The notes: generated by a model from the sequence alone, not told the origin. Positions 2,290 to 36,587 are shown, numbered from the stretch's first letter. The stretch is DNA of 64,000 bases from Acidobacteriota bacterium (GCA_040005235.1 JBDTZG010000010.1:32001-96000), one strand, 5' to 3'. Numbers and translations are program-made.

Positions 2290-2889
2290 TCAGGAGCCTT
2301 CCTTCGGCGACCCTGGAAGATCGAGCCGAATCCGGCCGTCGCCCCCGAACCGGAGCCGGATCTCGCCGTCGCGATCGGTGCGTAAAACGCGAAGTCCGCG
2401 CGCGGCGAACCGCTCCAGCACCTCGGGCGAAGGATGGTAGTAGGGATTCTTCGGCCCGACCGAGATCAACGCCCAACGGGGATCGACCGCGTCGAGTAGG
2501 AATCCAGCCGACGAGGTTCGGCTGCCGTGGTGCGCCACTTTGAGCACGTCGGATCGCAGGCGTTCTTGCGGCAGATCGAGCAGGCGCAGCTCTCCTATCC
2601 GTTCGACGTCTCCGGTGAGCAGCACCCGCCGACCGTACACCTCGGCGGAGAGAATCAGCGAACGTTCGTTCTCGGCGGTTCCACCCCGTTCCACCTCCTC
2701 ACGCGATGGCCCGAGGACGCTCAGCCGCCAGCGCCCGACGCGGCCACGAGCCCCCGCGACGAACGTGCGGACCCGCGCGCCGGGGACCGAAAACAGCTCG
2801 CCCGCGCAGCCTTCCGCCGGCCAGCCCGGCGCGGTCCAGATCTCCCCAATGTCCAAATAGGACGAAAGATCGACCAGGCCTTGGCAGTG
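2290..2889 (-). pseudogene. comEC: 3' fragment of comEC/rec2 (metallo-beta-lactamase domain, HCQGLVDL...KVAHHGS...NPYYHP...RTDRDG)
   Basis: LLTGD, KVAHHGS, NPYYHP and RTD motifs; frame stays open up to the junction at 2890. Confidence 0.92.
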
Positions 2890-4451
2890 ATCTGATTGCC
2901 GTGCCTTTTTGCCAGGCCTTTGGGGGAAGGGGGGCTGGAGGGAGGGGTGCTCGACGGAGATGTCCCAAAGGGAGGGATGGTAGGCGGAGGTGTATAGGCG
3001 AGGTTGATTTCGATCTCCCCCTTGCCTACGACGATCCGCTCGACCACCTGCTCCACGATTTGCCTCCGATCCTCAAAGGGAAGCTGCGGCCATCGGGCAT
3101 ACAGAGACCCCGCTTCGACGACAAAGCCGGCAGCGGAGACCTGCTGGATCTTGAGGAAGTCAACCTCCCCCTGAAGGCGAGGAATCTCGGTATCGAGCTG
3201 GGAGGCTCGTTCCTCAAGCGGACGGTGGCGCTCCCCAAACGACTTGGTTGAGAGCCCCTCGTCCTGATAGAGCCGGTAGAGCTTGTCCATTTCAGAGGAC
3301 ACTCGGGTGCGCTCCCGCAAGAGCGCTACTAAGAGATCCTCCTTCTGGCACAGTGCCTCATCTCCTTCCGAGAGGTATGCCGCGACCTCCTGAGGGTCGA
3401 GGAAAAAGTCTCGGAGCTTTTCGTGAAAGACCTGCTCAAGGTCCGCAGTCGGGATCTTGTTATGACACCCTCCCAGCCTGCTGTTGCAGATGTACTTCGG
3501 GCTGTTGGACGGGACGCGCATCTTCCGGCCACAGGAGCAGAAGGTGACGCCAGTGAAGAGGTGAACCGCCGGGCGGCCTGTCCGCTTCACCTTGGCGAGG
3601 CGGTCTTTGAGGTATGCGTTGCACTCTTCCCAGATCTCCTCGGACACCACCGGCTCAACGTTGGTCCATACCCATTCGTGCTCGGGCTTGATGAGTCGCT
3701 TCACGCCGTCGCTGCGGGAGTAGTTGGCGCGATGGAGCCCCTTGGCGACCGGGTTGGTGAGGAGTTCCCGGATGGTCATGTCCGCGAACAGTTGCCCCTT
3801 CCTCGTCCGATATCCAGCCTCGTTGAGGAGGCGGGCAACCCGGCCGATGAGACGATGCTCCCGGAAGAGTTCAAAGACGAGCTTCAGAATCGGAGCTTCG
3901 CTCGGATCGGGCATTAGCCGCGCCTTGTTCTCCCAGCGGTATCCATAGGGAGCCTTCCCCGCGACTGGTTTCCCTAACTTGGCCCGGATCGGCACCGATG
4001 CCGCTATCCGGGCGGAGATTTCCTCTCGCTCCCACTCGGCAAGGGCCGCGATGAGCGTGTAGAAGAAGCGGCCGGCCGGGCTTGAGGTGTCGATCGACTC
4101 CGCGAGGGAGATGAGGTCGGCCCCTTCCCGCCGGAAGATGTCGGCGAACTCCAGAAGCTCCTTGGTGTTTCGAGCCAACCGAGCGAGCTTCGAGAAGATG
4201 AGGCCGGTGATCGTGCCTTCCCGTACGTCGGCAAGCATCTCGATCGCTTCGGGCCGGCCCATAACGGACTTCCCTGAGATCGCATCGAGCCGGTACACCT
4301 TGGCGACAGTCCAGCCCTTCATCTCGGCGTACATCCGGGCGCGAGCTTCATGGGTCTCCGGGCTCTCACCCTTGACCTGATCCTCGGTTGAGACCCGAAT
4401 CCAGAGTCCTACTTGTTTGCCTCCTATGCTATTTGGCTCCTGCAGTTTCAT
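2721..4451 (-). CDS. Large serine recombinase (integrase); last 56 aa read out of frame into comEC in the integrated state
   Basis: WIRVST catalytic motif, SKLARLARN, recombinase domain, CSCG...C zinc ribbon, coiled coil. Confidence 0.95.
   Translation of the reverse strand: MKLQEPNSIGGKQVGLWIRVSTEDQVKGESPETHEARARMYAEMKGWTVAKVYRLDAISGKSVMGRPEAIEMLADVREGTITGLIFSKLARLARNTKELLEFADIFRREGADLISLAESIDTSSPAGRFFYTLIAALAEWEREEISARIAASVPIRAKLGKPVAGKAPYGYRWENKARLMPDPSEAPILKLVFELFREHRLIGRVARLLNEAGYRTRKGQLFADMTIRELLTNPVAKGLHRANYSRSDGVKRLIKPEHEWVWTNVEPVVSEEIWEECNAYLKDRLAKVKRTGRPAVHLFTGVTFCSCGRKMRVPSNSPKYICNSRLGGCHNKIPTADLEQVFHEKLRDFFLDPQEVAAYLSEGDEALCQKEDLLVALLRERTRVSSEMDKLYRLYQDEGLSTKSFGERHRPLEERASQLDTEIPRLQGEVDFLKIQQVSAAGFVVEAGSLYARWPQLPFEDRRQIVEQVVERIVVGKGEIEINLAYTPPPTIPPFGTSPSSTPPSSPPSPKGLAKRHGNQITAKAWSIFRPIWTLGRSGPRRAGRRKAARASCFRSPARGSARSSRGLVAASGAGG
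2890..2914. other. Left att junction (element-side arm ends in TTTTTGCCA)
   Basis: + strand ATCTGATTGCCGTGCCTTTTTGCCA; outer 9 bp are the inverse of TGGCAAAAA at the right junction. Confidence 0.85.
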
Positions 4452-4621
4452 GGATTGTCTCCATCTGCTCTAGGTTATGATTGCGTGAGGTAGAAAGAAC
4501 AGCATCCCGCGGTAAGAGTACGGATGATTTTCTCGCGCTCAAGGCGCCGAAAAGTGCCAGAACGGCATTCATTCAAGGATGATCCTCCGTCCGGCTACCT
4601 TTCGACGGAGACAAGGAGGTT

Positions 4622-4867
4622 TTGATGGACGCTAGCAATGTCACCAATAGCGTCGGACTCGTTCTCGATATCCTCGGCGCGTTTTTGGTCTGGCAGTACG
4701 GATTGCCGGCCGTAATGGAGCCTGGTGGAACTCGATACCGTAGCCGTTCCGGAAGTGACCCGGAAGGTCCGAGCACGGAGAAATTGCAATATCGAGCAAG
4801 ATCCAAGGCAGGTTTTGGTCTACTCATGGCGGGATTCATCTTGCAGTTGCTAAGCAATTTTCTCTAG
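4622..4867 (+). CDS. Small two-TM membrane protein
   Basis: AGGAGG RBS; two hydrophobic segments. Confidence 0.6.
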   Translation: MMDASNVTNSVGLVLDILGAFLVWQYGLPAVMEPGGTRYRSRSGSDPEGPSTEKLQYRARSKAGFGLLMAGFILQLLSNFL

Positions 4868-4896
4868 TGGCATCGTGGTTTTGGTTACGGAGAGGG

Positions 4897-5784
4897 ATGG
4901 ACATTCTGATGGCAAATGAACTCAAAGATCACAATGACGGTGAAAGGGACGGAGCCAATGCGTCATTCTTTGACGAAGTAGGATTGAATTGGAATCCGTT
5001 CCTATCTGAGGCCTATAAGAAGGGGTTTCGGAATGGCATGGCGAATAAACCCCGCAGAACGGCCAAGGAGTCATCACCCACGGCTTCGTCGAATGCATCA
5101 AGCGATGATGGACTGTGGCCTATCGCGTTAATCTTATACTTAGCTTTCGGCGTAGTATGGATCATATTTGTGATTATTGGATGGGCTATTAGTCGGCCTT
5201 GGCGATTTGCCGTTGGCGTGCTATTCGTATTATTTTTTGCAATATTACATGACATGGCATCCATACCTCAAGATTACTTTCTGCCATTCTCCAACTACAT
5301 CAACACTTTTCGCATATCTGACAATCCCACTCCGCCAGTTCCATCAACACCCATCCACAAAGAACCGGAACCATCGGATTCACCTTTCGTATCCCTTGGT
5401 CATTTTTCTGGCGACTCATATGAACTAGAGCTTTACCGAGACGATGAATCAGGCGGCCAAGTCATGGGCCTGATCACGGCTTTTCCTCAAGATGTCAGCA
5501 AAATGCCATCGGTAGGAGAGGTATACGATGTAGTAGGAACTGGCAGCGACGGACCACTGAGTTTCCGAACAACCTGGGTGGACTATTTGCCCTCTTTCAG
5601 AGGCAATGTAAACGGGGATCAAATCGAAGGCGACTATGACACGACCTTCGAGACCGAGCCGCGACACGTAATCTTCCGACGCTATACGCCTCAAGACGCC
5701 ACGACCTATGCCAACCGCGAGGAATGGTCTAAGCATGTCGCCGAGCAACTCGCATGTTGTGGACCAGGAACAACCGATCAGTAG
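4897..5784 (+). CDS. Hypothetical membrane protein
   Basis: Long ORF in an AT-richer region with two TM segments; start uncertain (4867, 4897 or 4909). Confidence 0.6.
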   Translation: MDILMANELKDHNDGERDGANASFFDEVGLNWNPFLSEAYKKGFRNGMANKPRRTAKESSPTASSNASSDDGLWPIALILYLAFGVVWIIFVIIGWAISRPWRFAVGVLFVLFFAILHDMASIPQDYFLPFSNYINTFRISDNPTPPVPSTPIHKEPEPSDSPFVSLGHFSGDSYELELYRDDESGGQVMGLITAFPQDVSKMPSVGEVYDVVGTGSDGPLSFRTTWVDYLPSFRGNVNGDQIEGDYDTTFETEPRHVIFRRYTPQDATTYANREEWSKHVAEQLACCGPGTTDQ

Positions 5785-5804
5785 AGGCTTCGGGTTCCTG
5801 CCGC

Positions 5805-8800
5805 TCACTCCTCCTTCTGAAGTCTGCTCATGCTGCGCGCCAGGATTTCGGCGACTCGGTTGGAGCGCCCGTCTCCCGGGTGTTGGTAGCGGACTTTCAC
5901 CTTGTACCCGGCAACCACGTCTTCTTGCTCCTCAGCCGGCTGACCTGAAAGCCATGCAAGAAGTTCCTCCGGAGTGAATATATGGACGCGCCCGAGATCC
6001 TCAGCCGAAAGCGCCTCTGCAAGCGCTTCGCGGAGCTTTGAGAGGCGCCCCTTCTTGAGGGAAACCATGGCGACTTTCTGAAAGCCTGCCGCCAGACACT
6101 TCCTGACGTTCCCGACCTCATACTCAAGAGGTGTGGTAATCGAGATCTCGCAGGCGATGCGTGCGTCCCCCCGATACAGCGCGACATCGATGCTCTCTCT
6201 GCCGCCGGCAATCTGCTCCTCCACCACTGCTCGGAAGCCCTGCTCTTGCGCCCACCGCTTGATGAGTTCTTGGAGGTAGGTATGCTCCGGCCCTCCCTTG
6301 CCCGGTCGGCGTGGCTCGAAAGGCGGCTCCTTCTGAAGACCATCCGCTTTCGAATGTTGAAGCGGCGGCGTCCCCGCTTCGCGAGCCGGCGTCACGGGAG
6401 GCGTTTCAGCCCTTGGTGCTGGTGCATCTCCTTTCCGCGGCTCTTCGGGTGAAGGACTCGGCCGCGCTGTAGCTTCCTCTGAGCGCCGGGCGCCCCACCG
6501 CGAGAGCGACCGGACCCGAATCTCCCGGCGTCGTGCGTCCCGTGCTTCAGGGTCCTCTCGCTTGGCATAGACCGTACGAAGGTTGAAGTCCTGCTCCTTC
6601 CGGCCGACCCGGCATACAGCCTCGCCGGTGCCGAGGTTCCCCAGATCGTCCGCCTCGAAGAAGGAGAACCCTTGCGCCAATGTGCGAGCGTCTTCGTCTC
6701 CCAGGCGGAAACAGATCCTGGTATATGCGTTCCCCAACACCGCCCGCTCCACTTCGGGGACGGTGCTATGGAGCTGGTAGAGGTCTTGGTGAGCGACAGT
6801 CAGGCCGAGACGGTATTTGCGGGCGCCGGAGAAAAGCGCCGCCATGGAGGGTGTCGCCAGGTTGTGGAACTCGTCGAGATAGAGGTAGAAGGGCTCGCGG
6901 GCCGATTCCGGTTGGTCCTGCCGCAGGAGGCAAACCTGGTGGAGCTTGGAGACCAGGAGCGAGCCGAGAAGCGCCGCATTCTCTTCGCCGATAGCGCCCT
7001 GTGAGAGCTTGGCGAGAAGAATCCGCCGGTCATCGACGACGCTCCGGAAGTCCAGGGGCTTCTCGACCGCGGTCACCACGCCGCGCAGAAGCCTTCCGCG
7101 CAGGATTGTATCGAGCCGCGTGAGGATCGATGCCTGAGGTTTGCCCGAGAGCATCGGAAACTCGGTCGTCCAGAAGTTCCGCGCGTACTCGTCTCGGACG
7201 GTTGTGAGGAACTCTCGCCTGAAGCTCGCATCCACCAGAAAGCGCCGGAGATCGAGGAGCGTCCCGCCCCGCTCTGACTCCAGGAAGGCGAGGATCGCGT
7301 TCGCCAGAACCGCCGTCATCTGGTCGCCCCAGGAGGTCGCGAGCCGCCGGAAGACCGCGACCAGATCCGAGGCGAGCATGTCTTTCTCGGCTTCGGAATG
7401 AGAGGAGAGCATGTTCCAGCCGACGACAAAGTCCGGCTCGGCAGGATCGAAGACAATCACGTCTTCCGCCCGGTTTTCGGGAATCGCCCCAAGTACCTCA
7501 TCGATGAGGTCACCGTGCGGGTCGATCACACCGACACCATGTCCCGCCGCAATGTCCTGGAGGATCATCGACACCAGAAGCGTTGACTTGCCAGTGCCCG
7601 AAGCGCCCACGACGTGCGTATGCCGCATGCGGGCGTCCGTCGAAAGCCGAGCTTCACGCTCCACTCCCGCGTGGACGTTGTATCCGAGAAAGATCCCACG
7701 AGAAAGCGCCTCGGCAGGAAGCGCCTTGGTGCGGGTGGTATCTCGATTCACACCTTCAATCGAGGGGGATGGCAGGTGTACCAGAGACACCAGCTCCGGG
7801 AGCGAGAGGAGCATGCCCGAGCGATGCGTTGTTCGCAGGATCACGTCGCCGAGCACTTCGTCGCTGCCGCCAATCCCGAATGGCACGAATTCGTTGTCGC
7901 CCCTGGTTGCACCCGAAAGCGCGCCGAGCGCGCCAGAGAGGAGGGTCCACAAACGCTCTTCTCTCTCTGCCCGGGCGACCAGACGGACAGCGACCGCGAA
8001 GAGCGGCGCGGACATCTTCTCTCTGGCGAGCTTGGTGACTTCGGGGGCGTCCGCGAAGAATGGATCGCCCGAAGGGGTGACCACCGAGCGAACCACGCTC
8101 TCCGCCCACGGCGCCCTCACCCCCTGAAAAAGGACTTGGAGAATTGCAACCTCGCCGGAAACGGTCTCCGCAAGCGCGCCAATGACCGCAGTCAAGGGGT
8201 CGAGCGAGAAGTTTCGGGGACGGTCAAGCGGCAGCATGAACTCGCGCGAGAGGCCAAGCTCGACGGCGGAGAAGACACCCTCGGCTCCCGCTTCCCATGC
8301 GTTCAAGAGGAGATCCGGTCCCTTCTCCAAAGCGATCTCCGGGAAGAAAGCTCGAAGTTGGGAGGACAGGATCGTGATCGCGTCACGTCGGGCGGTGAGG
8401 AGAACCGACACCCGCCCGCCCGAGCCGACCAGCTCCATCGACAGAGGCGAATGGACAGCAGCCAGACTCTTGAGCAAGCCTTCGGAGGCCGGTGCGGTGA
8501 CGGAGAGATCCTTTGGCAGGAGTAACCGTAGCTCGACAGGTTCTCCGTCCTCGTCGCCGCTCTCCGGCTCCGGCTCTTCGAGTTCGGGCGGAGGCGCCGG
8601 CTCCTCCCGTTTCTGAGAGAACCGTGCGAAGAAAGATGAGAGCCAGGTGTGATGCCTGCCGTCATCGACGGCAGGCGCGGTGTGACTCAGAAACCGGAAA
8701 GGAGTGAAGGGAGGCTCAAGAGAGACGGGGAACGGGTAGCTGTTTCGCCCGCGGCCCCGCCGCTCCCACCGGTAGAAGTGGCGGGTGCGCTCTTCAATGC

Positions 8801-8807
8801 TCGCCAT
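5805..8807 (-). CDS. VirD4/TraD-like (HerA/FtsK superfamily) ATPase with C-terminal PD-(D/E)xK-like domain
   Basis: Walker A GASGTGKS, IDPHGD, Walker B YLYLDEFH, ARKY and HQ motifs; C-terminal E...IDVAL...ACEIS. Confidence 0.85.
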   Translation of the reverse strand: MASIEERTRHFYRWERRGRGRNSYPFPVSLEPPFTPFRFLSHTAPAVDDGRHHTWLSSFFARFSQKREEPAPPPELEEPEPESGDEDGEPVELRLLLPKDLSVTAPASEGLLKSLAAVHSPLSMELVGSGGRVSVLLTARRDAITILSSQLRAFFPEIALEKGPDLLLNAWEAGAEGVFSAVELGLSREFMLPLDRPRNFSLDPLTAVIGALAETVSGEVAILQVLFQGVRAPWAESVVRSVVTPSGDPFFADAPEVTKLAREKMSAPLFAVAVRLVARAEREERLWTLLSGALGALSGATRGDNEFVPFGIGGSDEVLGDVILRTTHRSGMLLSLPELVSLVHLPSPSIEGVNRDTTRTKALPAEALSRGIFLGYNVHAGVEREARLSTDARMRHTHVVGASGTGKSTLLVSMILQDIAAGHGVGVIDPHGDLIDEVLGAIPENRAEDVIVFDPAEPDFVVGWNMLSSHSEAEKDMLASDLVAVFRRLATSWGDQMTAVLANAILAFLESERGGTLLDLRRFLVDASFRREFLTTVRDEYARNFWTTEFPMLSGKPQASILTRLDTILRGRLLRGVVTAVEKPLDFRSVVDDRRILLAKLSQGAIGEENAALLGSLLVSKLHQVCLLRQDQPESAREPFYLYLDEFHNLATPSMAALFSGARKYRLGLTVAHQDLYQLHSTVPEVERAVLGNAYTRICFRLGDEDARTLAQGFSFFEADDLGNLGTGEAVCRVGRKEQDFNLRTVYAKREDPEARDARRREIRVRSLSRWGARRSEEATARPSPSPEEPRKGDAPAPRAETPPVTPAREAGTPPLQHSKADGLQKEPPFEPRRPGKGGPEHTYLQELIKRWAQEQGFRAVVEEQIAGGRESIDVALYRGDARIACEISITTPLEYEVGNVRKCLAAGFQKVAMVSLKKGRLSKLREALAEALSAEDLGRVHIFTPEELLAWLSGQPAEEQEDVVAGYKVKVRYQHPGDGRSNRVAEILARSMSRLQKEE

Positions 8808-8815
8808 GCCTCACG

Positions 8816-9511
8816 CTACGCCGTGGCTGCCGCCTCGTCGGCGTCGGGCCGCAGCTCCTCGTCGCCGAGGCGCCTGAGTCCCTTCTCCTCCCGCAGATCG
8901 TTGATGACCTCGTTGACGGCCGAGCGCACGGAGTCTCGAAACATCATGGCGGTGTCGAGTCGGTAATACGTGAGGGGGTTGAAGAAGAACACGTACAAGC
9001 GGCCGATGATCGGGAGCATCATTACCCCCTCTTCGTCACCGATCAATCCCTCCTGCATCAGGTACCCCATCGAGAGGAGGACCATGGCGTACAGGATGTA
9101 TGGGATCACCAGAGCCACCAATACACCGCCGAGACCATCTGGCCTCATCAGCGAGGTCATGATGAGGAGAATCCCGGTGACGCATGCCGCCACGAAGAAG
9201 ATCCCGAGTGAAACCAGAATCCCAAACCTCGGAGGTACGCGGGCAAGCCACCAGGAGAAGAAGTGCCCGCCGCCATACGGCGCCGAGCAAATGTCGAAGG
9301 CAATCCGCTTCCGTCGGACCCGGAGGTACTCGCGTTCCGCCGTTCCGACACCACCCTCCTTGAATCGCTCGCGGGACATCGAGATTTCCGGAAGATTTCG
9401 TTCTCGGACCGCCTGCTCGACAGCTGCGTAAAAATCCTGGGTTGAGGTCGAGAAGCCCTCGAAGAGCATGTGCCAGTTGGACAGCACCAGTCCGTTAGGA
9501 TTGCTTGGCAT
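8816..9511 (-). CDS. Hypothetical membrane protein, co-transcribed with the VirD4-like gene
   Basis: GGAGG RBS, 2-3 TM segments, 8 nt gap to the downstream gene. Confidence 0.7.
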   Translation of the reverse strand: MPSNPNGLVLSNWHMLFEGFSTSTQDFYAAVEQAVRERNLPEISMSRERFKEGGVGTAEREYLRVRRKRIAFDICSAPYGGGHFFSWWLARVPPRFGILVSLGIFFVAACVTGILLIMTSLMRPDGLGGVLVALVIPYILYAMVLLSMGYLMQEGLIGDEEGVMMLPIIGRLYVFFFNPLTYYRLDTAMMFRDSVRSAVNEVINDLREEKGLRRLGDEELRPDADEAAATA

Positions 9512-9544
9512 TGCAGCCCTCCTCCGCTCTGAAGTGATATTCAG

Positions 9545-14790: not shown

Positions 14791-14821
14791 GGGAGCATGG
14801 GTTTATCCCCCCTTGCTCGCC

Positions 14822-24781: not shown

Positions 24782-24823
24782 GACGCTTGCCAAATTCGGT
24801 CAAGGCTGTATCATCAAAAACCT

Positions 24824-26563: not shown

Positions 26564-26581
26564 ATAGACTAACCGATACAC

Positions 26582-26773: not shown

Positions 26774-26820
26774 CCACCCGAAGGGGGTGATGTGTGCCAC
26801 AGTGGTACTAAGTCCTGTCT

Positions 26821-26997: not shown

Positions 26998-27003
26998 CTA
27001 CAA

Positions 27004-27825
27004 TTAACTTTGGCCTCTAGTCGAAATTCGCCTACACCACCCTGCTACATCTTCGGGCACCGCGAGAACGAGGCGGTGTCCATGCATCTGTGCGAACTGA
27101 GAAGCCGAAGGTAAAAAGCGAGAGGTGGTTACAAAGAGTCCGCGGCTTGCTTGTTGGTGCTCGACCACTCCGTAGAGAGCAGCGACAGCTTCGAGCTTAA
27201 CAGGGTATTGCGGGTCGTATCGTTTCGCCTGCACCAAAGTGACAAGCTCGCCGATCGAATCCTTCTGGACGAGACGAATATCGACTCCGGCATCCCCGCT
27301 GCCTGGACCGAGTTCCGTGTGAGACCCCTGATTCCGAAAGATAGCGTCGAGAAGATATTCAAACTTTCGCCACTCTAGTTGATGGAGTTCATTAGGATGT
27401 AGCCCAAAATATTCAATTAGCTCATCATTTACCGTCTTAAAGTCTGGCGTTACGACATGGCATACATGCGCAAACCTGGAATTTGCATAAAGAAGCTCAA
27501 AATGCCTCAATTCATTAAGTTTCTCACGCGATCTCCGCAGCCTATCTTGCCGAAGACCGTTTGGATATTGCTGATAGGTTTCAATGTCGTCGATGGCGTG
27601 ATAGTTAGCGAAATCCGTGCCATCATTGACAAAAACTGCCCGATATTCGGCGAGCTGCTCATCTATTCGCTCTTCTTCTCCTTTAGCTCTCCCTTCTTCT
27701 TCAACAATGCGAGCCATTTCGGATTGCAGAAATCTTTCAAATCCGTTGTGCGGTAAGACCGCGAGCAGTTGCTCTATCGTTATCGTCTCGTCCTCCAAGA
27801 ACCTATGAAACAGTTCTAGATTCAT
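27004..27825 (-). CDS. Mrr-like (type IV) restriction endonuclease domain protein
   Basis: WRKFE, DAGVDI, VQAKRY, FVTTSRF. Confidence 0.85.
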   Translation of the reverse strand: MNLELFHRFLEDETITIEQLLAVLPHNGFERFLQSEMARIVEEEGRAKGEEERIDEQLAEYRAVFVNDGTDFANYHAIDDIETYQQYPNGLRQDRLRRSREKLNELRHFELLYANSRFAHVCHVVTPDFKTVNDELIEYFGLHPNELHQLEWRKFEYLLDAIFRNQGSHTELGPGSGDAGVDIRLVQKDSIGELVTLVQAKRYDPQYPVKLEAVAALYGVVEHQQASRGLFVTTSRFLPSASQFAQMHGHRLVLAVPEDVAGWCRRISTRGQS

Positions 27826-28355
27826 TAAGCGTTATCTCAAAACTGAGAATTGTTTTGATTGACCGCTGTCTTTGTAGAAGAGGTGTCCACCAAATGATCC
27901 ACATTCTTCCTGTAGCGCACAGGGTAGTGTGTTCTCGTGTCTAGCCAGCGGCGTCTGATGAGCGGCAGAGAATACTGGAGAAAATATAGCGGCACATCGT
28001 ACATGGCGCAAGTTCTTTCTACGCCCACTCATTACGACATGGCAAAGAATGCATCCAGCGATCAGCGGCAAATGAAGAGAGTCTCAACGTAGATCTAACG
28101 GCAAAATCTCCTGAAATGGCTGCCGGGGAGAACCGACGTTTACCCCGCCGGTCCTTGGCGCTCCACTTACGTTCCGCAATTTCGTCACATTTCGGGCTCT
28201 CAAAGGCCGCAAACAAGGCGTAACTCGGTCGGTTTGTTGCGACTATCAAGAACATCCGTCCACTGAGGGCATCCCGGCCGCACTGTAGAGCCACAGGCGG
28301 CCCCTCATCCTGGGAGTCAGGAAGCGAGCGGAAGCCGTCTCGAAAGGTGTTCGGG

Positions 28356-28628
28356 ATGGTCCGTCGAACTGTCGTCCTTGTTGCGTCCTTCCTTCTGGTG
28401 GCCTCAGCGGCGCTTGCAGCAGGCGCCTCCCGCGAGTCTCGATCTCTCTGGGAATCGTTTTCGACAAGATCTTTCCTGGAATCAGTCCGTGTCGCGCTCA
28501 GCGGTCTCCTTCACGATCCGATCGGTCTCTTTGCGAACAATGGCAGCGAGACCGATCCAAACGGCAAGCCTCTCGCGTCGCCGCCGGCAGGAGTTGGAAA
28601 CGGCGGCACATCTCCTCAGGCCCAGTGA
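28356..28628 (+). CDS. Small secreted peptide with GSETDPNG motif
   Basis: Sec signal (ALA cleavage site); followed by a terminator and the TPR gene. Confidence 0.7.
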   Translation: MVRRTVVLVASFLLVASAALAAGASRESRSLWESFSTRSFLESVRVALSGLLHDPIGLFANNGSETDPNGKPLASPPAGVGNGGTSPQAQ

Positions 28629-28643
28629 TTGATGTCTGTGCTC

Positions 28644-28678
28644 GGCGGAGGCCAAATTATCGGCCTCCGCCTCTTTTT
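28644..28678 (+). terminator. Rho-independent terminator
   Basis: GGCGGAGGCC-8 nt loop-GGCCTCCGCC followed by TCTTTTT. Confidence 0.85.
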
Positions 28679-28750
28679 GTCCCGGATGACCCCTTGAAGC
28701 TCACCTCCAAGAGTAAGACACTACAGCTCTAGCGCGAAAGGACACAGGGG

Positions 28751-30115
28751 ATGAATGATCTGCATCTGAGTCGGGAGCTTCTTCGTGCCATCGCGGCCGG
28801 CGACCTTCCCCCTCGCACACTTCTCGACATGGCCCTCCCACACCTGTTCGAGCTTTGCCCGCACTGTGCCTCGGAGTGGGATTCGTATCAGCGCGAGATG
28901 CGGACGCGCCCGGGAAGTTACGCGGGCGCCTTCGCGATTCTTCCAGCCCTCCTCGAACGGGAACTTCCCAAGGCACAGGCAGAGGAACACCAAGCCCGCA
29001 AGGATCTCCAAGTCCTCTTGGGCCTCCCCGAGGACCAGCGTATTTCGCGTGTTCGTCGCTCCTATCGACGCTTCCGGACACCGACTCTGGCCCAACTCCT
29101 TGTTATCGAATGCAGGAAGCGGTTGAGTTCCGTTCCCCGCGAGGCCTACCATTTAGCGGATCTCGCTCGCGAGGTCACAAACCAGGTTCCCGAGTCACCG
29201 ATCGCCCGCGAGCTGCGGGCGCTTTCGTTTGGCGAGATGGCAAACGCCATCCGGGCCGTCGGTGATCTCCCACAAAGCGACCGCATCTTCGGCCAGGCTC
29301 GCTACTTCACCGTGGTTGGCGGGGTAACCGATCCAGAGATCCTGGCACGGCTCGACTCATTGGAAGGCTCACTGCGACTCGACCAGGGCCGCTACCGTGA
29401 TGCCGAAGAGATCCTCGGCAGGGCGCGGCTTCACTACGAGCTCATAGGCGACCGTCCTGCGGTCGGGCGAGTGCTCATGCAGCTCGCGACGGTGTACCGC
29501 CGCAGTGGAGAGACTTCACGCGCAGTGCGGCTCGGGACAGAGGTCGTCGGATACTTCGACCCTGAGTCCGACCTTTGCCTCTATCTCGCCGCCCGGCGGA
29601 ACCTCGCGGACTACCTTGGCGATTATGGGCGCGGGAGGGAGGCCCTCGCGATTCTCGACGAGGACGAGGTGCGGCATCGCTCCCTCGGAGAGCCCCTTCT
29701 CCAGATCCGCTACACCTGGATTCGCGGCAAGATCGCTATCGGTCAAGGAGAATTCGAGAGCGCGGCGCGCCTTCTTGCCGCGGCGCGCGATGTCTTTCTT
29801 GGCTCCCAGAAGGAGTTTGACACCGTTTTGGTCTCACTTGATCTTGCCCAGGCCTATCTTGGTGCCGGACGCCTGGAGGAGACGAAGCGAATCGCCTCGG
29901 AAATCGTGCCGCTCTTCGAGGCGAATGAGCTGCATCGCGAGGCATTGGCGGCCGTTCTCGTTTTTCGCGACGCCGCCGAGCGCGAGACGCTTACGGTCGA
30001 TTTCCTGCGAGAGATGGGAACATTCCTCGAAGCCTCCCGGACAGATCATTCTCTGCGATTCGAGCCTGGCAAGCGTCTGAATCCACGGGGACGGACACTT
30101 AGCAATGACGCCTGA
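28751..30115 (+). CDS. TPR protein with N-terminal HxxxxCxxC zinc-finger (zf-HC2-like) motif
   Basis: HLFELCPHC; helical TPR-like repeats. Confidence 0.8.
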   Translation: MNDLHLSRELLRAIAAGDLPPRTLLDMALPHLFELCPHCASEWDSYQREMRTRPGSYAGAFAILPALLERELPKAQAEEHQARKDLQVLLGLPEDQRISRVRRSYRRFRTPTLAQLLVIECRKRLSSVPREAYHLADLAREVTNQVPESPIARELRALSFGEMANAIRAVGDLPQSDRIFGQARYFTVVGGVTDPEILARLDSLEGSLRLDQGRYRDAEEILGRARLHYELIGDRPAVGRVLMQLATVYRRSGETSRAVRLGTEVVGYFDPESDLCLYLAARRNLADYLGDYGRGREALAILDEDEVRHRSLGEPLLQIRYTWIRGKIAIGQGEFESAARLLAAARDVFLGSQKEFDTVLVSLDLAQAYLGAGRLEETKRIASEIVPLFEANELHREALAAVLVFRDAAERETLTVDFLREMGTFLEASRTDHSLRFEPGKRLNPRGRTLSNDA

Positions 30116-30279
30116 GACCGATGGTTTTCGCACTATGCGCCGACGCCTCTTAACGCACAGCGAGACATGCACATATCTGAATTTGACGCGATGCGCGTGA
30201 AGCGACAGACTTCTTGACGTTATGATGCTTTTGCCCATTTTCCAGTAATGCTTTTACTCAACACCAATAGGAGACATCA

Positions 30280-31014
30280 ATGCGCTACATTCTCGCTTTC
30301 TCAATACTCCTGATCGCCGCTTCCTCTCCACACGCGAGTGCCTTGGATATTAGAACGACACCATTGCCTTCTGTCACTGCTGCAACGGTCTCTACGCAGT
30401 TTGGCTACACCACAGCCCAAGCCAAAGGAATGTTGGACTTAACCCAGAAAGAACTCTGGTCTCTCGTACCACCGAATCCGACGGCATGGACAACTTCCAC
30501 TTACGCTCTGAGAACTCGAATGAATACGGCTCTTGGGACGCAGGGTTTCGACAGTCCACTTGCAAATGTAATCATCAATTCTTGCAAGGTTTATGCTCGC
30601 GATGCTCGTCACTGTGTCATATTTGCGTCGGCGGTCGCCTGTGCTGAAAGTAGCTGCGGTCAGACATATAGCACTTCTGCTTATGCAATTTTCGGCCTCA
30701 AAGATAGCAACAGCCAACCTATTAAATACTCGTCAAGGACGCATGCGGTCATTGATTGGGTGAAGAGGTATAATGTCAGCTGGTTCGTTGCTGACGAAGG
30801 TTATTTTTACGGATTCTGCAAAAAATACGGCTCGACCTTCCTTCCGCATTGCGACAACGTAGGCACAGACTATTATGCAAATTATTTTTACTCGAACAAG
30901 AAGGGCCGGTATCCTGCGTCGAATTATTGCGGCTCTGAGAGCGGCTCCTCCACTCCTGGTTATTGTCCAAACGGATTCGCGAATTCCAAGGCGGCGTACT
31001 TGAAGGTCAAATGA
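30280..31014 (+). CDS. Secreted lysozyme-fold (glucosaminidase-like) protein
   Basis: AGGAG RBS, signal peptide, ACAESSCG and IFGL motifs. Confidence 0.55.
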   Translation: MRYILAFSILLIAASSPHASALDIRTTPLPSVTAATVSTQFGYTTAQAKGMLDLTQKELWSLVPPNPTAWTTSTYALRTRMNTALGTQGFDSPLANVIINSCKVYARDARHCVIFASAVACAESSCGQTYSTSAYAIFGLKDSNSQPIKYSSRTHAVIDWVKRYNVSWFVADEGYFYGFCKKYGSTFLPHCDNVGTDYYANYFYSNKKGRYPASNYCGSESGSSTPGYCPNGFANSKAAYLKVK

Positions 31015-31255
31015 CCTCGATTTCCGATTCTAGAGTCCAGACGCAATCCGCGGATACCATGTGAACATGCTCTTCCACTCTCGAATGCCACCGCTCCACA
31101 TGTGGCCGGAGATCGCAGCAGACCGCCGTCATGGCAAGCAATGCACTCATGACGCGCTTCCTACGCGGCTATTCTGCGGGAACAGAGCTATCTCAATTAC
31201 GGAATTCGGGCCGCGGTGTGAGGAGCACCTCAGGCCGAGCTAGCAGCAAGCCGCC

Positions 31256-32410
31256 TCACAAAGCAATCCTGAGTTGGCTGGGTGAGGCTTCCAAGGTTCT
31301 TGAACCTCCCGGAGAAGGCTTCGCAGGAATGAAGGGGCGATCAATCCACTGTTTATAGGCAGCGATGTTACAGGTAAGGAGTGCGTCCACCAACCTGTTT
31401 GCTTCCGGGTCAACTCCTTCCCACTTAATCCGCCGCGACATCAACCGCGCCCTTTTCCTCTTGATAGAATTCATGAAGGGCCTCGAATCGCTTATCGTCC
31501 AATCGGTAAAGAGTCGAGAGATCTCTCCCCTGAATTGTGCAGCTCCAACAGCAACAAGGTGCAAAGGCCGCTTCAGAGCATCCTGAAGCCGTGCTAAGTG
31601 GTGCAGGGCATCGCGCCCTCGCGCCGGATTCGCGAGACCGGTCTGGAACTCTTTCGAGACCATCGTGATCTCTTCGTGAGTCTCCAAAAATTCGAGCCAG
31701 TATTGCCAGTCTCGTAGAGTAACAGCCTGAAGATATGGAATGATTGGAATACCACGTGCACTCCATTCCCGAGCACAGACCAAGGAGCGCTTTCGGTTGT
31801 AGAGATGCTGGGGCCGAGGATGGCGTAACGAGAAGGAATAGTTTGGAACTATTGCTCCGCTAAAACCCATTTTCGCGAGTGAAGCAAAAATCTCTTCGTT
31901 CCTGTCTCCCCAATAGCGCTCAATGACATCATCCAGACCAATACCTACCAACAACAGCTTTGCTGTTGGTCGCAGCTTGAACCGTTCTCGGATTGCACTG
32001 CGAGACATCGCAATAGGAGTTGGTATGCCTCGGGGATGTTGAATCAAACCAGAGAGAGGTACGGCTGCCCAATCAGCGCGAAGAGACCTCGCGCGGCTTG
32101 ATCCATGCTGGATTAGCGGGAGGTAGCGTGGAAGTGCTTCAGTTGGAACATTCAAAGGTCCAATATCGTCAAAATCAAAACCTCCAACCTCAATGAATGC
32201 GTCGTTCAAGACATCAGGCTTACCGAGGCAGATAAGATCACAATCAGCGGCACAGCCGTTGCATCGGCCCTCACACCATCCCCCACCAACTCGAGTATTC
32301 CCACCACAGAGATACAATAAGCCGCAGCCCTGACACCATAAGCTGACAGTGTCACCGTCCATGCGGTGAAGTTCGATGTTCTCGCTCAAGACCTCTCGAG
32401 ACCTTTTCAT
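31256..32410 (-). CDS. DUF4417-like protein with Cys-rich N-terminus
   Basis: CxxC..CGG..C...C..C..C; PNYSF, NRKRS, GIPIIP motifs. Confidence 0.6.
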   Translation of the reverse strand: MKRSREVLSENIELHRMDGDTVSLWCQGCGLLYLCGGNTRVGGGWCEGRCNGCAADCDLICLGKPDVLNDAFIEVGGFDFDDIGPLNVPTEALPRYLPLIQHGSSRARSLRADWAAVPLSGLIQHPRGIPTPIAMSRSAIRERFKLRPTAKLLLVGIGLDDVIERYWGDRNEEIFASLAKMGFSGAIVPNYSFSLRHPRPQHLYNRKRSLVCAREWSARGIPIIPYLQAVTLRDWQYWLEFLETHEEITMVSKEFQTGLANPARGRDALHHLARLQDALKRPLHLVAVGAAQFRGEISRLFTDWTISDSRPFMNSIKRKRARLMSRRIKWEGVDPEANRLVDALLTCNIAAYKQWIDRPFIPAKPSPGGSRTLEASPSQLRIAL

Positions 32411-32428
32411 TAATGATCAACCTTTCGC

Positions 32429-32806
32429 TTAATGCTTCTCGTATCGAGGATGGAATTTCAGTGCAACTATTCCTTCCTCTTGGAAAACCTCGGTTACTTC
32501 GGCCGATAGAGCTTTGCTCTGTCGCGCGCTCGCGGAAGCTTCACCGAATAGTTCGACCACCCGCGATTTTCCATACGACAACGTGAAACTGTCTTGCTCT
32601 CCTACTTGAGGAAAGTGCACGAGTCTTTGACCGGGCTTGACTGACTGGCCTGGCATGAGCAGACCAATCACGTCAGACGAAATACTCGGAGGTACGCCCG
32701 AAAAAAGGTCTGGTCCAGCGAGAAACCTCTGGAAGTCGCGATCGATGCAGCGACGGATCTGTCTGTGCTGACGCTCAAGAAACTCTTCACCCATAGCTAC
32801 CTCCAT
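32429..32806 (-). CDS. Hypothetical protein, third gene of a 4-gene operon
   Basis: Overlaps the upstream gene; 18 nt gap to the downstream gene. Confidence 0.65.
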   Translation of the reverse strand: MEVAMGEEFLERQHRQIRRCIDRDFQRFLAGPDLFSGVPPSISSDVIGLLMPGQSVKPGQRLVHFPQVGEQDSFTLSYGKSRVVELFGEASASARQSKALSAEVTEVFQEEGIVALKFHPRYEKH

Positions 32807-33405
32807 AAGGGGACGTAAACAAATTGACGTCCATACTTGTAGCGACTGAGAAGCCGCTGCTCATAGAGCAGAGCAAGCCGATTGCTCCACCCTGTCTGTT
32901 GAATTCGGGGATCTTGACGAAAAAGGTCGGTAGCAGTTGCCTGTTCTAGAGAAACAACCCGGTCGTACGTCTCGGTAGCGTCTCGGTCAAGCCCGAAAGG
33001 CCGAAACTTTTGCTGATCGGGTTCCCAGAAGAGGGTTCGATAACCGGTAGCCTTGAGGGCGAGCTCAATCTCGTCCCTTGACTCTGGGTTTACGTCTGCG
33101 AGTACTGGAAAAAGCTCCTTCTCGCGCGCAACCCGAGAATTCCAGAGCCACTCAAACGCACCGAGGAAATAGGAGGAAGTGACGAGTTGCACTCCTCCGA
33201 AGTCCAAAAGAATTGCAGCGTTCGAGGTTTCCCTACCGATCGCCTCATCCAGGGCGGGACGAGTGGCCTCACCCGCAAGTCGGCCGGCTAGGGTCGTACT
33301 CCCCCCTAGTGCCGCTACATCTACCCTGACCTGCGTCAGCATCACCATGAATCGTGACGATAGAAGAATCGGCAAGGACTTGTCAACCCCCCCCTTACGC
33401 TCCAT
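32797..33405 (-). CDS. STAS-like domain plus winged-HTH protein
   Basis: ILLDFGGVQLVTSSYF; C-terminal WSNRLALLYEQRLL...GRQFVY. Confidence 0.65.
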   Translation of the reverse strand: MERKGGVDKSLPILLSSRFMVMLTQVRVDVAALGGSTTLAGRLAGEATRPALDEAIGRETSNAAILLDFGGVQLVTSSYFLGAFEWLWNSRVAREKELFPVLADVNPESRDEIELALKATGYRTLFWEPDQQKFRPFGLDRDATETYDRVVSLEQATATDLFRQDPRIQQTGWSNRLALLYEQRLLSRYKYGRQFVYVPLWR

Positions 33406-34309
33406 TGAATGGGCCTCCTAGTCGAACTCGAAAGCCATTGCTCCGAACTGGCAAGGCGCGAGCATGGATCGTTTGGTGGGTGGGGCTTACCCCCTCCCAT
33501 GTCGCGACAGCCCCCCCTGAGCGGAAGCGAAGAACAGCCCGACGATCGACCAAGGACTTAAAGACGCGGGAGAACCCCATTCCCCGACCTGAAATTGGCA
33601 ACCGAGACACACCGGGTTGGAGCGCCTGCTCCAGTGCTTCACCTTCAGTCCCAAGAGCCTTGTGGCGCGGGTTCTCTCTCAGGCTTGCGAGCACTCCCCT
33701 CCCAACATCTACAACACTGAGAGCCCACGTTCCTTGGCCAACCTCAAAACATGCAACAGGGCGCACAGGCGAAACTGCGTGCTCTGCCGCATTCGACATC
33801 ATCTCCTGAAGCGCCCCAGCAAGTGCACTCGCGAAACCTGACCCCACGCCTTGGCTGCGCAAGGCGGTGCGGAATTGCTCCTGAAACTGGGTCAGAATTC
33901 CACCTGGCTCCCAGTCCTTCGGTGATGTACCGAATTGTTTGATTCCTGGGCGAATAGGCCCTTGGGTATATGCCAAGCTTCGGGACTGATCTGGCTGGAG
34001 AAGCTCGCAGCCCGCAGCTAGTGCTCGCAAATTAGTGAGCGCAGGCCAACGCTCCAATTCCGGAAATGATGAAATAAGATCCTCTCCGCTATCTCGCCAT
34101 CTCGAGTAGCGAAGTGCGGAGAACTCCAACGCTGAAGAAAACCCCAAACCGACGAGATTTCCTCCCGTTGCAGTTCCCCTTTGTAGGGCAATCTCAAACA
34201 GATCAATAGGATCGAAGGATTGAGACATTCTGGTCCGCTTTGGCTTTCGGTCCACTTCCCATTGAGCAGCTCCTTTCGGTGCCGAGAAAGGCAGGCGTAA
34301 GTCTATCAT
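33395..34309 (-). CDS. GHKL/HATPase_c (anti-sigma kinase-like) ATP-binding protein
   Basis: N-box EMMSNAAEHA, G1 DVGRG, G2 GRGMGF. Confidence 0.8.
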   Translation of the reverse strand: MIDLRLPFSAPKGAAQWEVDRKPKRTRMSQSFDPIDLFEIALQRGTATGGNLVGLGFSSALEFSALRYSRWRDSGEDLISSFPELERWPALTNLRALAAGCELLQPDQSRSLAYTQGPIRPGIKQFGTSPKDWEPGGILTQFQEQFRTALRSQGVGSGFASALAGALQEMMSNAAEHAVSPVRPVACFEVGQGTWALSVVDVGRGVLASLRENPRHKALGTEGEALEQALQPGVSRLPISGRGMGFSRVFKSLVDRRAVLRFRSGGAVATWEGVSPTHQTIHARALPVRSNGFRVRLGGPFNGA

Positions 34310-34414
34310 GGAATCAGCAGTCTCGCGCGAAGAGTGCTAACAGATCTCACTGAACCGTAGGTCAAGCAATTGTCGGCAGGCAAAGAGCCCCAGGATCTCT
34401 CCTGGGGCTGGTCG

Positions 34415-34858
34415 CTACGCTTCCGCCTCCACGAACTCCCTCACCACCGTCAGCACGCGCCTGTTCGTAACCTCCTTTCCCGTCTCAAGAAGACTGATGG
34501 TGTCCTTCGGGACATCGAGCTGCCGAGCCAACTGATACTGCGTGAGCCCGAGGTTCCGGCGCTTCTCCCGCAGCCGCTCCGCGAATGTCATAGCCCCCTG
34601 GAAGGGTTCGTACCCTAGAAACTCGATAATCCTCCCCAGGTACGAGGTCTTCGGCTCAGCTCTCCCGGTCTCCCAAGCGTTGACCGTGTTGGCCTCCACT
34701 CCAAAGATCTCGGCAACCTCAGCCTGAAGAAGCTTCAAGTCCAGCCGGCGCTTTCGGAGGTGGTCTCCAATGGACTGGAGTTCCTTCGGATACTCCGGCG
34801 GCAAGGGCTTGGGCACCGAGATCGTGAGGTGGCAAAAACCCAAAGCAGGTATCGCCAT
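34415..34858 (-). CDS. Tandem XRE-HTH protein; its ATG lies in host comEC sequence across the att junction
   Basis: Two HTH_3-like units (HLRKRRLDLKLLQAEVA..WETG; LREKRRNLGLTQYQLA..LETG). Confidence 0.85.
   Translation of the reverse strand: MAIPALGFCHLTISVPKPLPPEYPKELQSIGDHLRKRRLDLKLLQAEVAEIFGVEANTVNAWETGRAEPKTSYLGRIIEFLGYEPFQGAMTFAERLREKRRNLGLTQYQLARQLDVPKDTISLLETGKEVTNRRVLTVVREFVEAEA
34830..34853. other. Right att junction
   Basis: + strand TGGCAAAAACCCAAAGCAGGTATC. Confidence 0.85.
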
Positions 34859-36587
34859 CAGGGTGGGTCATCACGACGGCATCCAGCCGCCGCACCCCTT
34901 CGGCTAGCAGAGCGGGAAGCAGCACCCGGCCACCGAGATCGCCGTGGCGCCAACCGCCGCCGTCGACCAGAATCGCCCGCGCGCCGTCGCGCAACAGGAT
35001 CGAATCCCCCTGGCCAACGTCGAACATCGCGAGCGTCGGCTCGGTTCCCGGGGGCCGGTGCGCGCCGATCGCGACCCCCCCCCCAAGCGCCAAGGCTCCG
35101 CCGAGAGCCAAGAGCACCCGTTGGGAGCGCGACAGGCGGCGATCCGGCGCCAACGCGAGCAACCCGACGCCCGCGGCGAGCAGAATCGCCGTGCCGAGCC
35201 CCGCGGCCACCGGAATCGAAGGCCGCCAGGGGCCGGGAATCCGCGCCGGCCAGCCGAGCGGCGCCGCGAGCGCGTCGAGCCACGGCAGAACCTGCCTTGC
35301 GAATTCCGGCGCGACGCAGGCGAGGCCCAGCCAGACGAAGCAGGCAGCGAGCGCCACGGCGGCCCACGGAATCGCGATCAGGTTGAACGCAAACGAAGCC
35401 GGGGTCAGTAGGTGAAACGCCGGAAGCGCAAAAGGAAGGGTCGCCACCTCGGCTCCCGCGCTAGCCGCGAGACCCCGCCGCAGCCACGGGCTCCAAGAAA
35501 ACGGCCGGCGGTTCCAAGCCCGCTCGAACCGGGGGGCGACCACCAACAAACCGACGGTTGCGGACATCGAGAGCTGGAACGACAGATCCAGCACGAGATC
35601 CGGCCGGCTCGCCACTCCGAGCAGCAGCGCCAGACCGAGGCCATTCTTCGCCGCCGGAGGGCGTTCGAAAGCAAGGGCCGCCACGGCCAATAAGCCCATC
35701 ACCGCGGCGCGCACCAGGGCCGGGAGCGGACCGGCAATCATCAAATACGCCGCGACGGCACCCGCCGCTAGCAGCAGCCGAACTCCTCGCGGCAGCCGGC
35801 TCCCGAACAAGCCGCCGAAAAGAAAGACGAGCGCCGCGGCCAAGCCGACGTGAACCCCGGACACTGAGAGAAGATGGAACAGCCCGGTCCACCGCAGCCC
35901 CCGCTTCCAGGCCGGCGGAATGCGCGAGGCATCCCCTAGAACGAATGCACGGACGAGCGCCTTGCCCGCGCTTTCGGGCCCCGCCGCTCCGATCCGCCGT
36001 TCGAGAGCCCGCCGCCATCGCGAGGAAAGCCGAGAGAGCGCCCCCGGCGGCCGTTCGATTTCGAGAAACACCCGGCTCTTGAGCGACATCCGCCAACCGC
36101 CCGGCTCGCTGGGACCTGCATTCGCAAACGGTGCCGAACGTCGGAGATACCCTTCGGCCCGCACCCGCGAACCGAACTCCGGCGGTTCCTCCTCTCCGGG
36201 AATCCGCAACCGGGCCGAAAACCGGACCGGCTCCGATCGACCCGCTTGGACGAACCGGTCGACCTCGAACGGCGCCTCCCAGCCGTCCTCGTCCGCCGTC
36301 CAATGGCCGGAGATCGTGCCAGAAAGGATCACCGGCCGATCGGAATCCAAGCCCAGTTCGGCGCGTCCAGGTAGGGAGTAGAAAAGAGTCGCCACCAGAG
36401 CCCCCGCGCCCACCGCAGCGACGAGGACCCCGAACCTCCGCCGCAGAGCGAATCCCGCGGCGATCAGGGCGACCAGAAGGGGAACGGCCGGGCGAAAGGA
36501 GAAGAGCGCAAACAGAGCCCCCGCAGCCAACGCGAGGGCCGGGGCAAACAGAGGAGCGGACGGGGAGGATCGATCGTTGGTTTTCAT
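34851..36587 (-). pseudogene. comEC: 5' part of comEC/rec2 (579 codons); reads 43 aa into the element to a stop at 34719
   Basis: HLLSVSGVH, SFQLS, FDVGQGD, DGGG and THPDGD motifs. Confidence 0.95.

Follow-up and report, generated by a model that had tools for sequence, protein, structure and literature searches.

A putative 32-kb large serine recombinase element lies within comEC, at motif II of the nuclease domain, in an Acidobacteriota bacterium

comEC lies in two parts on either side of a 32-kb insert

We analysed a stretch of 64,000 nucleotides from an Acidobacteriota bacterium (GCA_040005235.1, JBDTZG010000010.1:32001-96000), hereafter the window, with positions counted from its first letter. 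Its competence gene comEC, which lies on the minus strand, is found in two parts separated by an insert. A large serine recombinase (LSR) gene adjoins the comEC 3′ part, and a gene for a double Xre-type helix-turn-helix (HTH) protein adjoins the 5′ part, both on the same strand. The open reading frames (ORFs) and candidate attachment sites at the two junctions, with the domains of the metallo-β-lactamase (MBL)-containing ComEC protein, are as follows.

34851..36587, minus strand: comEC 5′ part, codons 1-579 (DUF4131, Competence domain, MBL start through H-P-D-G-D)
34719..34850, minus strand: read-through of the comEC frame, 43 codons and a stop, in an alternate frame of the HTH gene
2290..2889, minus strand: comEC 3′ part, 199 codons and a stop (motif-II H and the remaining MBL domain, with LLTGD and AHHGS)
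2890..34850: inserted element, 31,961 bp with one GAT copy counted, GC 0.568
34826..34878: attL region, extent approximate; the host half-site ends ...CCTGATGGCGAT, the element half-site begins ACCTGCTTTGGG, GAT at 34853-34851
2865..2915: attR region, extent approximate; the element half-site ends ...GGCACGGCAATCAGAT, the host half-site begins CACTGCCAAGG, GAT at 2892-2890
2721..4451, minus strand: LSR ORF (Resolvase, Recombinase, Zn_ribbon_recom)
34415..34858, minus strand: double Xre/cI-type HTH ORF at the element end, element-encoded from 34850

The comEC ORF starts at 36587 and reaches codon 579 (GAT, D) at 34853-34851, where its product reads ...VVMTHPDGD; past this point the frame runs through 43 further codons of element DNA to a stop, giving an ORF of 622 aa (34719-36587). 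The 3′ part takes up the protein with CAC (H) at 2889, reads HCQGLVDLSSYLDIGEIW... and continues free of stops for 199 aa to its end at 2290. An initial annotation of this DNA had claimed that comEC is split exactly in a metal-binding motif, into 579 and 199 aa with no stops or frameshifts in either half, and reading both frames confirmed each of these points. The cut falls in motif II of the window ComEC, which runs H575-P-D-G-D579 and then H580, between the last Asp and the His. The motif had been described as HxHxDH, which is wrong for this family: the ComEC motif is H-x-D-x-D-H, with one His replaced by Asp (Silale 2021, PMC8579336). An intact H-x-[D/H]-x-D followed by H..G was present in 113 of the 120 listed ComEC homologues.

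The two parts belong to one gene. A profile made from seven full-length homologues (766 positions) matched the window at 36587-34836 (profile positions 1-575, E 0.0) and at 2898-2296 (positions 568-765, E 3.6e-112), and it found no further match, so no second comEC, within the 64-kb window. When aligned with intact ComECs of 777-781 aa, the halves meet without the loss or repetition of any residue. Identity to the homologue P0004, a ComEC/Rec2 of a Thermoanaerobaculia metagenome-assembled genome (MAG), was 88.2% (510/578) for the 5′ half and 88.4% (176/199) for the 3′ half; because both are about 88% identical to the same homologue, they are not parts of two different comEC paralogues, and the split-gene claim withstood this refuting condition of the initial annotation.

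The 5′ part encodes PF13567 (DUF4131, OB; residues 18-158, 1.8e-9) and PF03772 (Competence; residues 216-473, 1.3e-43), and the truncated 622-aa product does keep the channel domain, in line with the initial annotation. From the nuclease domain it retains just profile positions 2-55 of the 196 of Lactamase_B. The motif-II His, LLTGD and AHHGS of the 3′ part align with those of intact homologues, and the MBL nuclease domain, with motif II and the later motifs, is complete only if both comEC parts are read together. A single uninterrupted comEC of about 750-800 codons is thus not what the locus holds, its parts being 31,961 bp apart. Judged from their sequences, neither comEC half appears to be decaying: the terminal branch of the window ComEC (0.095) equals the median of ten intact homologues, and its identity to intact homologues falls within their mutual range of 82-91%.

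Junctions and attachment sites of the element

GAT is present at both junctions and nothing longer is shared, so the crossover can be placed only to within 3 bp. The insert shows the arrangement expected for LSR integration, i.e., a recombinase gene located at its end, about 2 bp shared between the junctions and no long direct repeats. In the attP reconstructed in silico, dyad symmetry was highest around a GA centre (13 of 20 positions, versus 4-8 for neighbouring centres), and the natural attP of a related locus, L026, has a 9-bp inverted repeat around the aligned position. The insert is also lower in GC content than its flanks (0.640 and 0.659). Their genes are of the usual chromosomal kind, with Der GTPase, RNase R and SMC in one flank and a PIN/Phd pair in the opposite one.

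The LSR ORF is element-encoded down to 2890, and its final 56 codons cross attR into comEC DNA in a different frame. The protein matched PF00239 (1.1e-29), PF07508 (4.6e-16) and, at a score of 25.2 against a cut-off of 25.3, PF13408 (2.2e-5); its PDB matches were the TP901-1, SPβ and other integrases, and it keeps every invariant column of an 18-sequence LSR alignment. For the double-HTH protein, the nearest solved relatives were the P22 C2 and 434 repressors, the ICEBs1 Xre-family regulator and HipB. The first ATG of the HTH ORF (34858-34856) sits in comEC DNA, at the G-D codons of motif II, and its start is in this sense supplied by the host; as T or R is found there in other hosts, the host-supplied start is probably due to chance.

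Related elements recur at the same comEC site

Among the 120 listed ComEC homologues, four have their cut immediately behind the motif-II Asp. Besides the window protein, these are P0015, P0016 and P0020, which are 52-54% identical to the window ComEC and end in tails that resemble the alternate-frame HTH read-through of the window. Evidence from the recombinase side came from 22 database LSR clusters that are 69-79% identical to the window LSR. For 15 of the 22, the read-through tail, in the frame of the LSR, matched window sequence that crosses attR and enters the comEC 3′ part (E 1e-7 to 2e-22). The tail of P0130 matched antisense sequence of the 5′ part instead, across attL (E 7e-16), which places this insertion at the same site in the opposite orientation. 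The other six tails (P0129, P0134, P0135, P0142-P0144) were too short or had no significant match; in our tree, the labels “antisense” (P0142-P0144) and “sense” (P0134, P0135) were set by eye only. LSR gene calls P0122-P0144 range from 470 to 650 aa, because the ORF runs through attR into host DNA in a stop-free frame. For annotation, this means that variable C-terminal LSR tails are host-derived read-through from GC-rich flanks and not real domains.

One further Thermoanaerobaculia locus, L001, carries an LSR 77% identical to that of the window, followed by a comEC 3′ part (profile positions 567-763) that begins at the same His, is open over 191 codons and is 55% identical to its counterpart in the window. 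These values (77% for the LSR, 55% for the comEC part) indicate that the element is more conserved than the comEC of its hosts. This LSR clade thus occupies one and the same comEC position in further Thermoanaerobaculia-type genomes that are only remotely related to the window host. In a FastTree phylogeny of 104 LSRs, the 23 comEC-clade proteins formed one clade with an SH-like support of 100, within which comEC flank evidence is available for the window, L001 and 16 tails (15 across attR, and P0130). The nearest neighbours of this clade were three Thermoanaerobaculia LSRs (L018, L035 and L075) and then comM-associated LSRs. No Pfam family was found in the LSR-adjoining ORFs of these three loci (15 ORFs at 1e-6, then 31 short ORFs at 0.01), and farther along, only Thioredox_DsbH, DUF4386 and CHAT matches were obtained.

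Relatives of the recombinase are frequently found in comM

A scan of one genome per species returned 547 confirmed LSR relatives, and the best 80 of the 547 were kept as loci. Among these 80, 46 LSR loci are in comM (43 in one orientation, 3 in the other). The initial annotation had stated that mobile elements often interrupt competence genes, and this count agrees with that statement, as does the published enrichment of such genes among LSR targets (PMC10083194). What follows the LSR in the 80 loci was as listed here.

43 loci: immediately past the LSR and on the other strand, a 5′ fragment of comM whose end falls at profile position 358-364 of 364
3 loci: LSR ORF in frame into the comM 3′ part
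1 locus (L001): comEC 3′ part
7 loci: LSR and HTH fused in one ORF
5 loci: partial HTH directly after the LSR
5 loci: too little flank
16 loci: no target identified

The end point of the comM fragments is consistent, as 22 of the 27 that were printed end exactly at ...MNP. In the three loci of the second kind (L016:10001-11938, L024:10001-11971 and L070:6881-8827), the LSR ORF continues into Mg_chelatase positions 154/155-205/206 and Mg_chelatase_C, so that LSR-ComM C-terminal fusions of 646-657 aa are predicted. No locus with both element ends was found within the 10-kb flanks, where the ComM C-terminal profile matched just L016, L024, L070, L038 and L067. The last two have an unusual layout, in which the LSR lies directly between a full-length comM (+) upstream and an inverted 5′ fragment of comM downstream (L038:8376-12542 and L067:8259-12521); either the element carries its own intact comM there, or these loci reflect an inversion or a misassembly.

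The LSR family spans very many phyla. Cultured carriers of a comM-type relative include Sphingobium cyanobacteriorum HBC34 (L012), Caulobacter segnis CC215 (L047) and Brevundimonas sp. BR2-1 (L054). LSRs with 55-59% identity were seen in MAGs labelled as candidate phyla radiation (CPR; Saccharibacteria, Paceibacteria and Yonathbacteria) and in two archaeal MAGs (CPR and archaeal loci: L005, L006, L008, L011, L014, L021, L056 and L065), the archaeal contigs being so short (3.4 and 16 kb) that their binning may be wrong. In phage records, 1179 matched, all at <60% identity, and none was >30% identical to the window LSR; the 4293 matching plasmid records included no LSR >28% identical, and E. coli genomes gave no match to the comM-type LSR DNA of L036.

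Integration splits the element's own recombinase-HTH gene

The self-splitting LSR-HTH gene is the new part of the finding. In all seven loci with an HTH downstream of the LSR, both lie in a single ORF without a break (634-695 aa), which carries the Resolvase, Recombinase and HTH_3/HTH_31 domains, and the database protein P0158 (650 aa) is an additional example of such a fusion. The 47 integrated loci (46 in comM, 1 in comEC), by comparison, have no HTH after the LSR. When the window element was closed into a circle in silico, its two ends gave a 665-aa ORF collinear with the natural fusions; at the circle junction, the LSR side (...KRHGNQ) and the HTH side (PALGFCHL...) aligned with ...QHNV and TPALPFC... 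of L061, respectively. Fused forms neighbour comM-integrated ones in the tree (L011 with L036, L074 with L055), as would be expected if one kind of element exists in a free and an integrated state.

Because LSR and HTH form one ORF in unintegrated relatives, attP lies inside the element's own recombinase-repressor gene, and its position in the linker means that integration splits that gene as well as comEC. The free and the integrated form thus encode different proteins. Integration would leave an LSR with a host-derived tail at one end of the element and a promoterless HTH ORF at the other. Narrow text searches, which are not proof of absence, found no report of a serine recombinase with attP inside its own gene.

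Backbone and cargo genes of the element

We scanned 27 element ORFs against Pfam, NCBIfam, PHROGs and PADLOC, and backbone genes were recognised by tblastn matches in the related loci. The gene content, beyond the two end genes, is given below.

5805..8807, minus strand: 1000-aa TraD/VirD4/TrwB-like P-loop ATPase, backbone, just upstream of the LSR in relatives (matches in 43 loci)
8816..9511, minus strand: 231-aa backbone protein (matches in 12 loci)
9545..19169: cargo block with a 1396-aa M23-peptidase/fn3/Calx-beta/MAM protein (M23 being a cell-wall hydrolase), two unknown ORFs, an extracytoplasmic function (ECF) sigma factor and a kinase
15580-16158, plus strand: the ECF sigma factor, common to L001 and L035
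16104-19169, plus strand: the Ser/Thr kinase, with tetratricopeptide (TPR) repeats, common to L001 and L035
19231..20391, minus strand: 386-aa second TraD/TrwB-like ATPase, backbone (matches in 43 loci)
22087..24491, minus strand: backbone block with a 158-aa protein (20 loci), an HTH regulator (13) and a 459-aa protein (11)
24824..34309: variable block with a second LSR, an Mrr-type endonuclease, a TPR protein, unknown ORFs and a HATPase_c_2 protein
24824-26563, plus strand: the second LSR, 28% identical to the first and unrelated to it, CcrB/XisF-like by NCBIfam at scores below the cut-offs
27004-27825, minus strand: the Mrr-type endonuclease
33395-34309, minus strand: the HATPase_c_2 protein

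All backbone genes are open. The two TraD/VirD4-like ATPases scored 49 bits, far below the family cut-offs of 250-366; the 158-aa protein has a weak resolvase-like match, the fold predicted for the 459-aa protein is DUF3631/primase-helicase-like, which is no more than a lead, and the element ORFs also gave a weak ArdC-like match. The window element and L035 have in common the 1000-aa ATPase (66% identity), the kinase and the ECF sigma factor.

PADLOC returned mad8 matches for both ATPases (5e-20 for 5805-8807 and 2e-16 for 19231-20391) and mad6/PD-T4-6 matches for the kinase at 16104-19169 (8e-59 and 2.5e-63), and it recognised no complete methylation-associated defence system in the element. 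As the mad8-like ATPases are backbone genes of the element family, their role in defence is doubtful. The second LSR is found in a block of lower GC (0.552) together with the Mrr-type endonuclease and the TPR protein (27004-31014), and this block might represent a further element nested within the main one; because serine recombination creates no repeats that could be detected, the boundaries around the second LSR could not be set.

Proposed mechanism and alternative explanations

We consider it likely that the insert is a 32-kb LSR integrative element, unlike a phage in appearance and with a plasmid-like backbone, which inserted site-specifically in comEC at a GA(T) core. In favour of insertion, direct observation covers the anatomy of the junctions, their recurrence, the fixity of the sites and the splitting of the LSR-HTH gene. 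LSR recombination is conservative, and from this property of the enzyme family, excision would be expected to rebuild both the 778-aa comEC and the 665-aa LSR-HTH gene; for comEC, this restoration had been predicted by the initial annotation, and in silico it holds, with 579 + 199 codons collinear with intact homologues. Taken as a whole, the interpretation given in that annotation is partly supported.

As for the host, the split would leave a ComEC with its OB and channel domains and no working nuclease domain. Since the 622-aa product is devoid of the nuclease domain beyond motif II, DNA uptake would probably be lost or strongly reduced. B. subtilis transforms 10- to 100-fold less well when the motif-II aspartates are lost, and not at all when comEC is null (PMC8579336). 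Loss of uptake would, in turn, shield the element from deletion by incoming homologous DNA. Current models hold that bacteria can use transformation to purge parasitic DNA, and that mobile elements respond by breaking competence genes; Croucher et al. reportedly described an intragenomic-conflict model of elements versus transformation in 2016. Work on comM in Acinetobacter points the same way as this conflict model (PMC11472951).

More tentatively, we hypothesize that the window element belongs to a cross-phylum, plasmid-like family in which a recombinase-repressor fusion is made from the free circle, and in which integration breaks a host competence gene (comM, or comEC after retargeting in the Thermoanaerobaculia clade) together with the element's own LSR-HTH gene. 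The state of the element would then be hard-wired into its proteins, and its targets would be a footprint of selection against transformation; this wider scheme is possible rather than probable. If it is true, the free or integrated state would give a serine recombinase built-in control of direction or immunity, and the presence of one LSR family on two transformation steps would reflect selection to shut transformation down. Closely related recombinases in comM or comEC, two steps of one pathway, are hard to explain without selection on the phenotype. The split LSR-HTH gene suggests how an element might sense its state without a separate factor, which bears on LSRs as genome-engineering tools, and the locus adds an uncultured phylum and a precise strike on a catalytic motif to the known cases.

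Several points weigh against these proposals. The benefit of blocking transformation is argued by analogy with published models, and the element is at present only putatively mobile. No relaxase, VirB4 or virion gene was recognised among the 27 ORFs (Pfam, NCBIfam and PHROGs), 12 of the 27 had no match in any library scanned, and no recombination directionality factor was identified among the element ORFs. Long open frames persist easily in GC-rich DNA, and the apparent intactness of the comEC halves fits recent insertion as well as selection. The initial annotation had explained the undegraded halves by either recent insertion or regulated restoration; their undegraded state was upheld, and the data do not separate its two options. 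L001, the only other DNA-level copy of a comEC part used in the dN/dS comparison, gave a value of 0.32 for the 3′ part, but at a dS of 1.2 (saturated) and 55% amino acid identity it is too distant to be informative on evolution after insertion. Finally, the tree was midpoint-rooted for drawing only, so the direction of the change between comM and comEC as targets is not readable from it.

Part of this evidence also suits a regulated switch of the active lysogeny or skin type, in which the element is kept in comEC and excised on a host signal, e.g., competence induction. Neither half is degraded, their similarity to intact homologues equals that found among the homologues themselves, the LSR looks intact, precise excision rebuilds the host gene in silico, and the Listeria comK prophage is a precedent (PMC7397523). 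Moreover, the window orientation places the HTH and following genes after the comEC 5′ part and in its direction, where transcription from comEC could reach them. However, an uninterrupted ComEC is the rule (113 of the 120 listed homologues, the closest at 81-87% identity among them), which indicates that the insertion is sporadic and neither fixed nor stably retained in a lineage, and the orientation varies (P0130 is opposite in comEC, and comM shows 43 versus 3); we regard a switch as unlikely. It is also improbable that the insert is an immobile relic that has lost the ability to excise, with comEC a young pseudogene in a host that has simply lost competence. Such a relic would accord with the failure to recognise a directionality factor or transfer genes among the scanned ORFs, with an integration that strips the HTH part from the LSR and adds a host-derived tail, and with the second LSR and cargo blocks, which suggest later accretion, but the LSR has kept an intact, conserved ORF, every backbone gene is open, and the comEC halves have no extra substitutions, stops or frameshifts.

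Because an LSR and a cI/C2-like repressor module mark its opposite ends, the insert could be taken for a temperate prophage like the streptococcal comEC case Φ1207.3, and weak PHROG matches to a terminase large subunit (4e-8 and 1.5e-10) and a minor tail protein (6e-11) point in this direction. Yet TraD/VirD4-type ATPases and phrog_5156 (unknown function) are far better matches for these ORFs, the “tail” match falls in the fn3-repeat region, no capsid, portal, tail or lysis family is found among the 27 ORFs, and no phage record has an LSR >30% identical. A prophage is thus very unlikely, and we rejected this explanation given the lack of virion genes (27 ORFs, 12 of them unmatched) and of a close phage LSR. 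An assembly or binning artefact that joined unrelated contigs inside comEC deserves hardly any credence. The source appears to be a metagenome-type assembly and the ComEC cluster is known from one contig of 122 kb, but both junctions are codon-exact and fall in a single stretch of 64 kb, a conserved LSR-HTH gene re-forms when the two ends are joined, and independent assemblies carry the same junctions.

Comparison with known systems

Insertion of LSR elements into competence genes, the ComEC family included, is already published (Durrant 2022; Φ1207.3). Φ1207.3, Tn1207.3 and Φ10394.4 of S. pyogenes and Tn1207.1 of S. pneumoniae are inserted site-specifically in comEC (celB) at a GA dinucleotide (PMC4260502). 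Like Φ1207.3/Tn1207.3, the window element is a serine recombinase element in the comEC coding sequence, and GA is the best-supported centre here too. In contrast, the streptococcal elements are a prophage and a defective transposon of Firmicutes with mef(A)/msr(D), whereas the window element has no recognised virion genes, a host within Thermoanaerobaculia and no phage LSR >30% identical to its own.

In the LSR survey of Durrant et al. (2022, PMC10083194), Mg-chelatase homologues are the targets of 12.4% of predicted site-specific LSRs, and PF03772 occurs in 15 of 1069 target clusters compared with 0 of 908 random genes (19 versus 0 for PF01078). The window LSR shares with these recombinases the targeting of comM and other competence genes, given the 46 of its 80 relatives in comM. 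This clade, the motif-II site, the dual targeting of comEC and comM and the split LSR-HTH gene go beyond what the cited passages and the “Fig. S1B” sheet of that survey report. In A. baumannii, AbaR islands and other elements interrupt comM repeatedly, often with defence genes and with a measurable drop in transformation (Mazzamurro 2024, PMC11472951). The window cargo likewise has defence-like genes (Mrr, a PD-T4-6/mad6-like kinase and mad8-like ATPases), but AbaR islands are Tn7-like transposons in comM, unlike the LSR element in comEC.

Two other systems also place attP in an element's own gene, so that integration alters the protein made: integration-dependent immunity of mycobacteriophages, where integration truncates the repressor (PMC9262239), and the “suicidal” integrases of SSV-type archaeal viruses, where integration splits the integrase ORF (PMC7253208). 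Both use tyrosine recombinases and tRNA targets, whereas a serine recombinase is at work here and the cut is in a linker. Compared with a truncated repressor or a split integrase, the catalytic LSR stays whole and the C-terminal double HTH alone is detached. In B. subtilis, skin and SPβ are elements in a developmental gene, which is restored by their regulated, precise excision. Precise, regulated excision likewise restores comK in Listeria carrying φ10403S (PMC7397523). Regulated excision has been shown experimentally in these systems; the window element is known from its sequence, and its insertion is sporadic among relatives.

Genes at the two outer flanks of comEC

Two spots flank the interrupted gene (552-1222 and 36714-38468). 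The PIN/Phd pair, a toxin-antitoxin pair, lies to the left of the comEC 3′ part, and an Eco57I-type N6 methyltransferase lies to the right of the comEC start, divergent from comEC.

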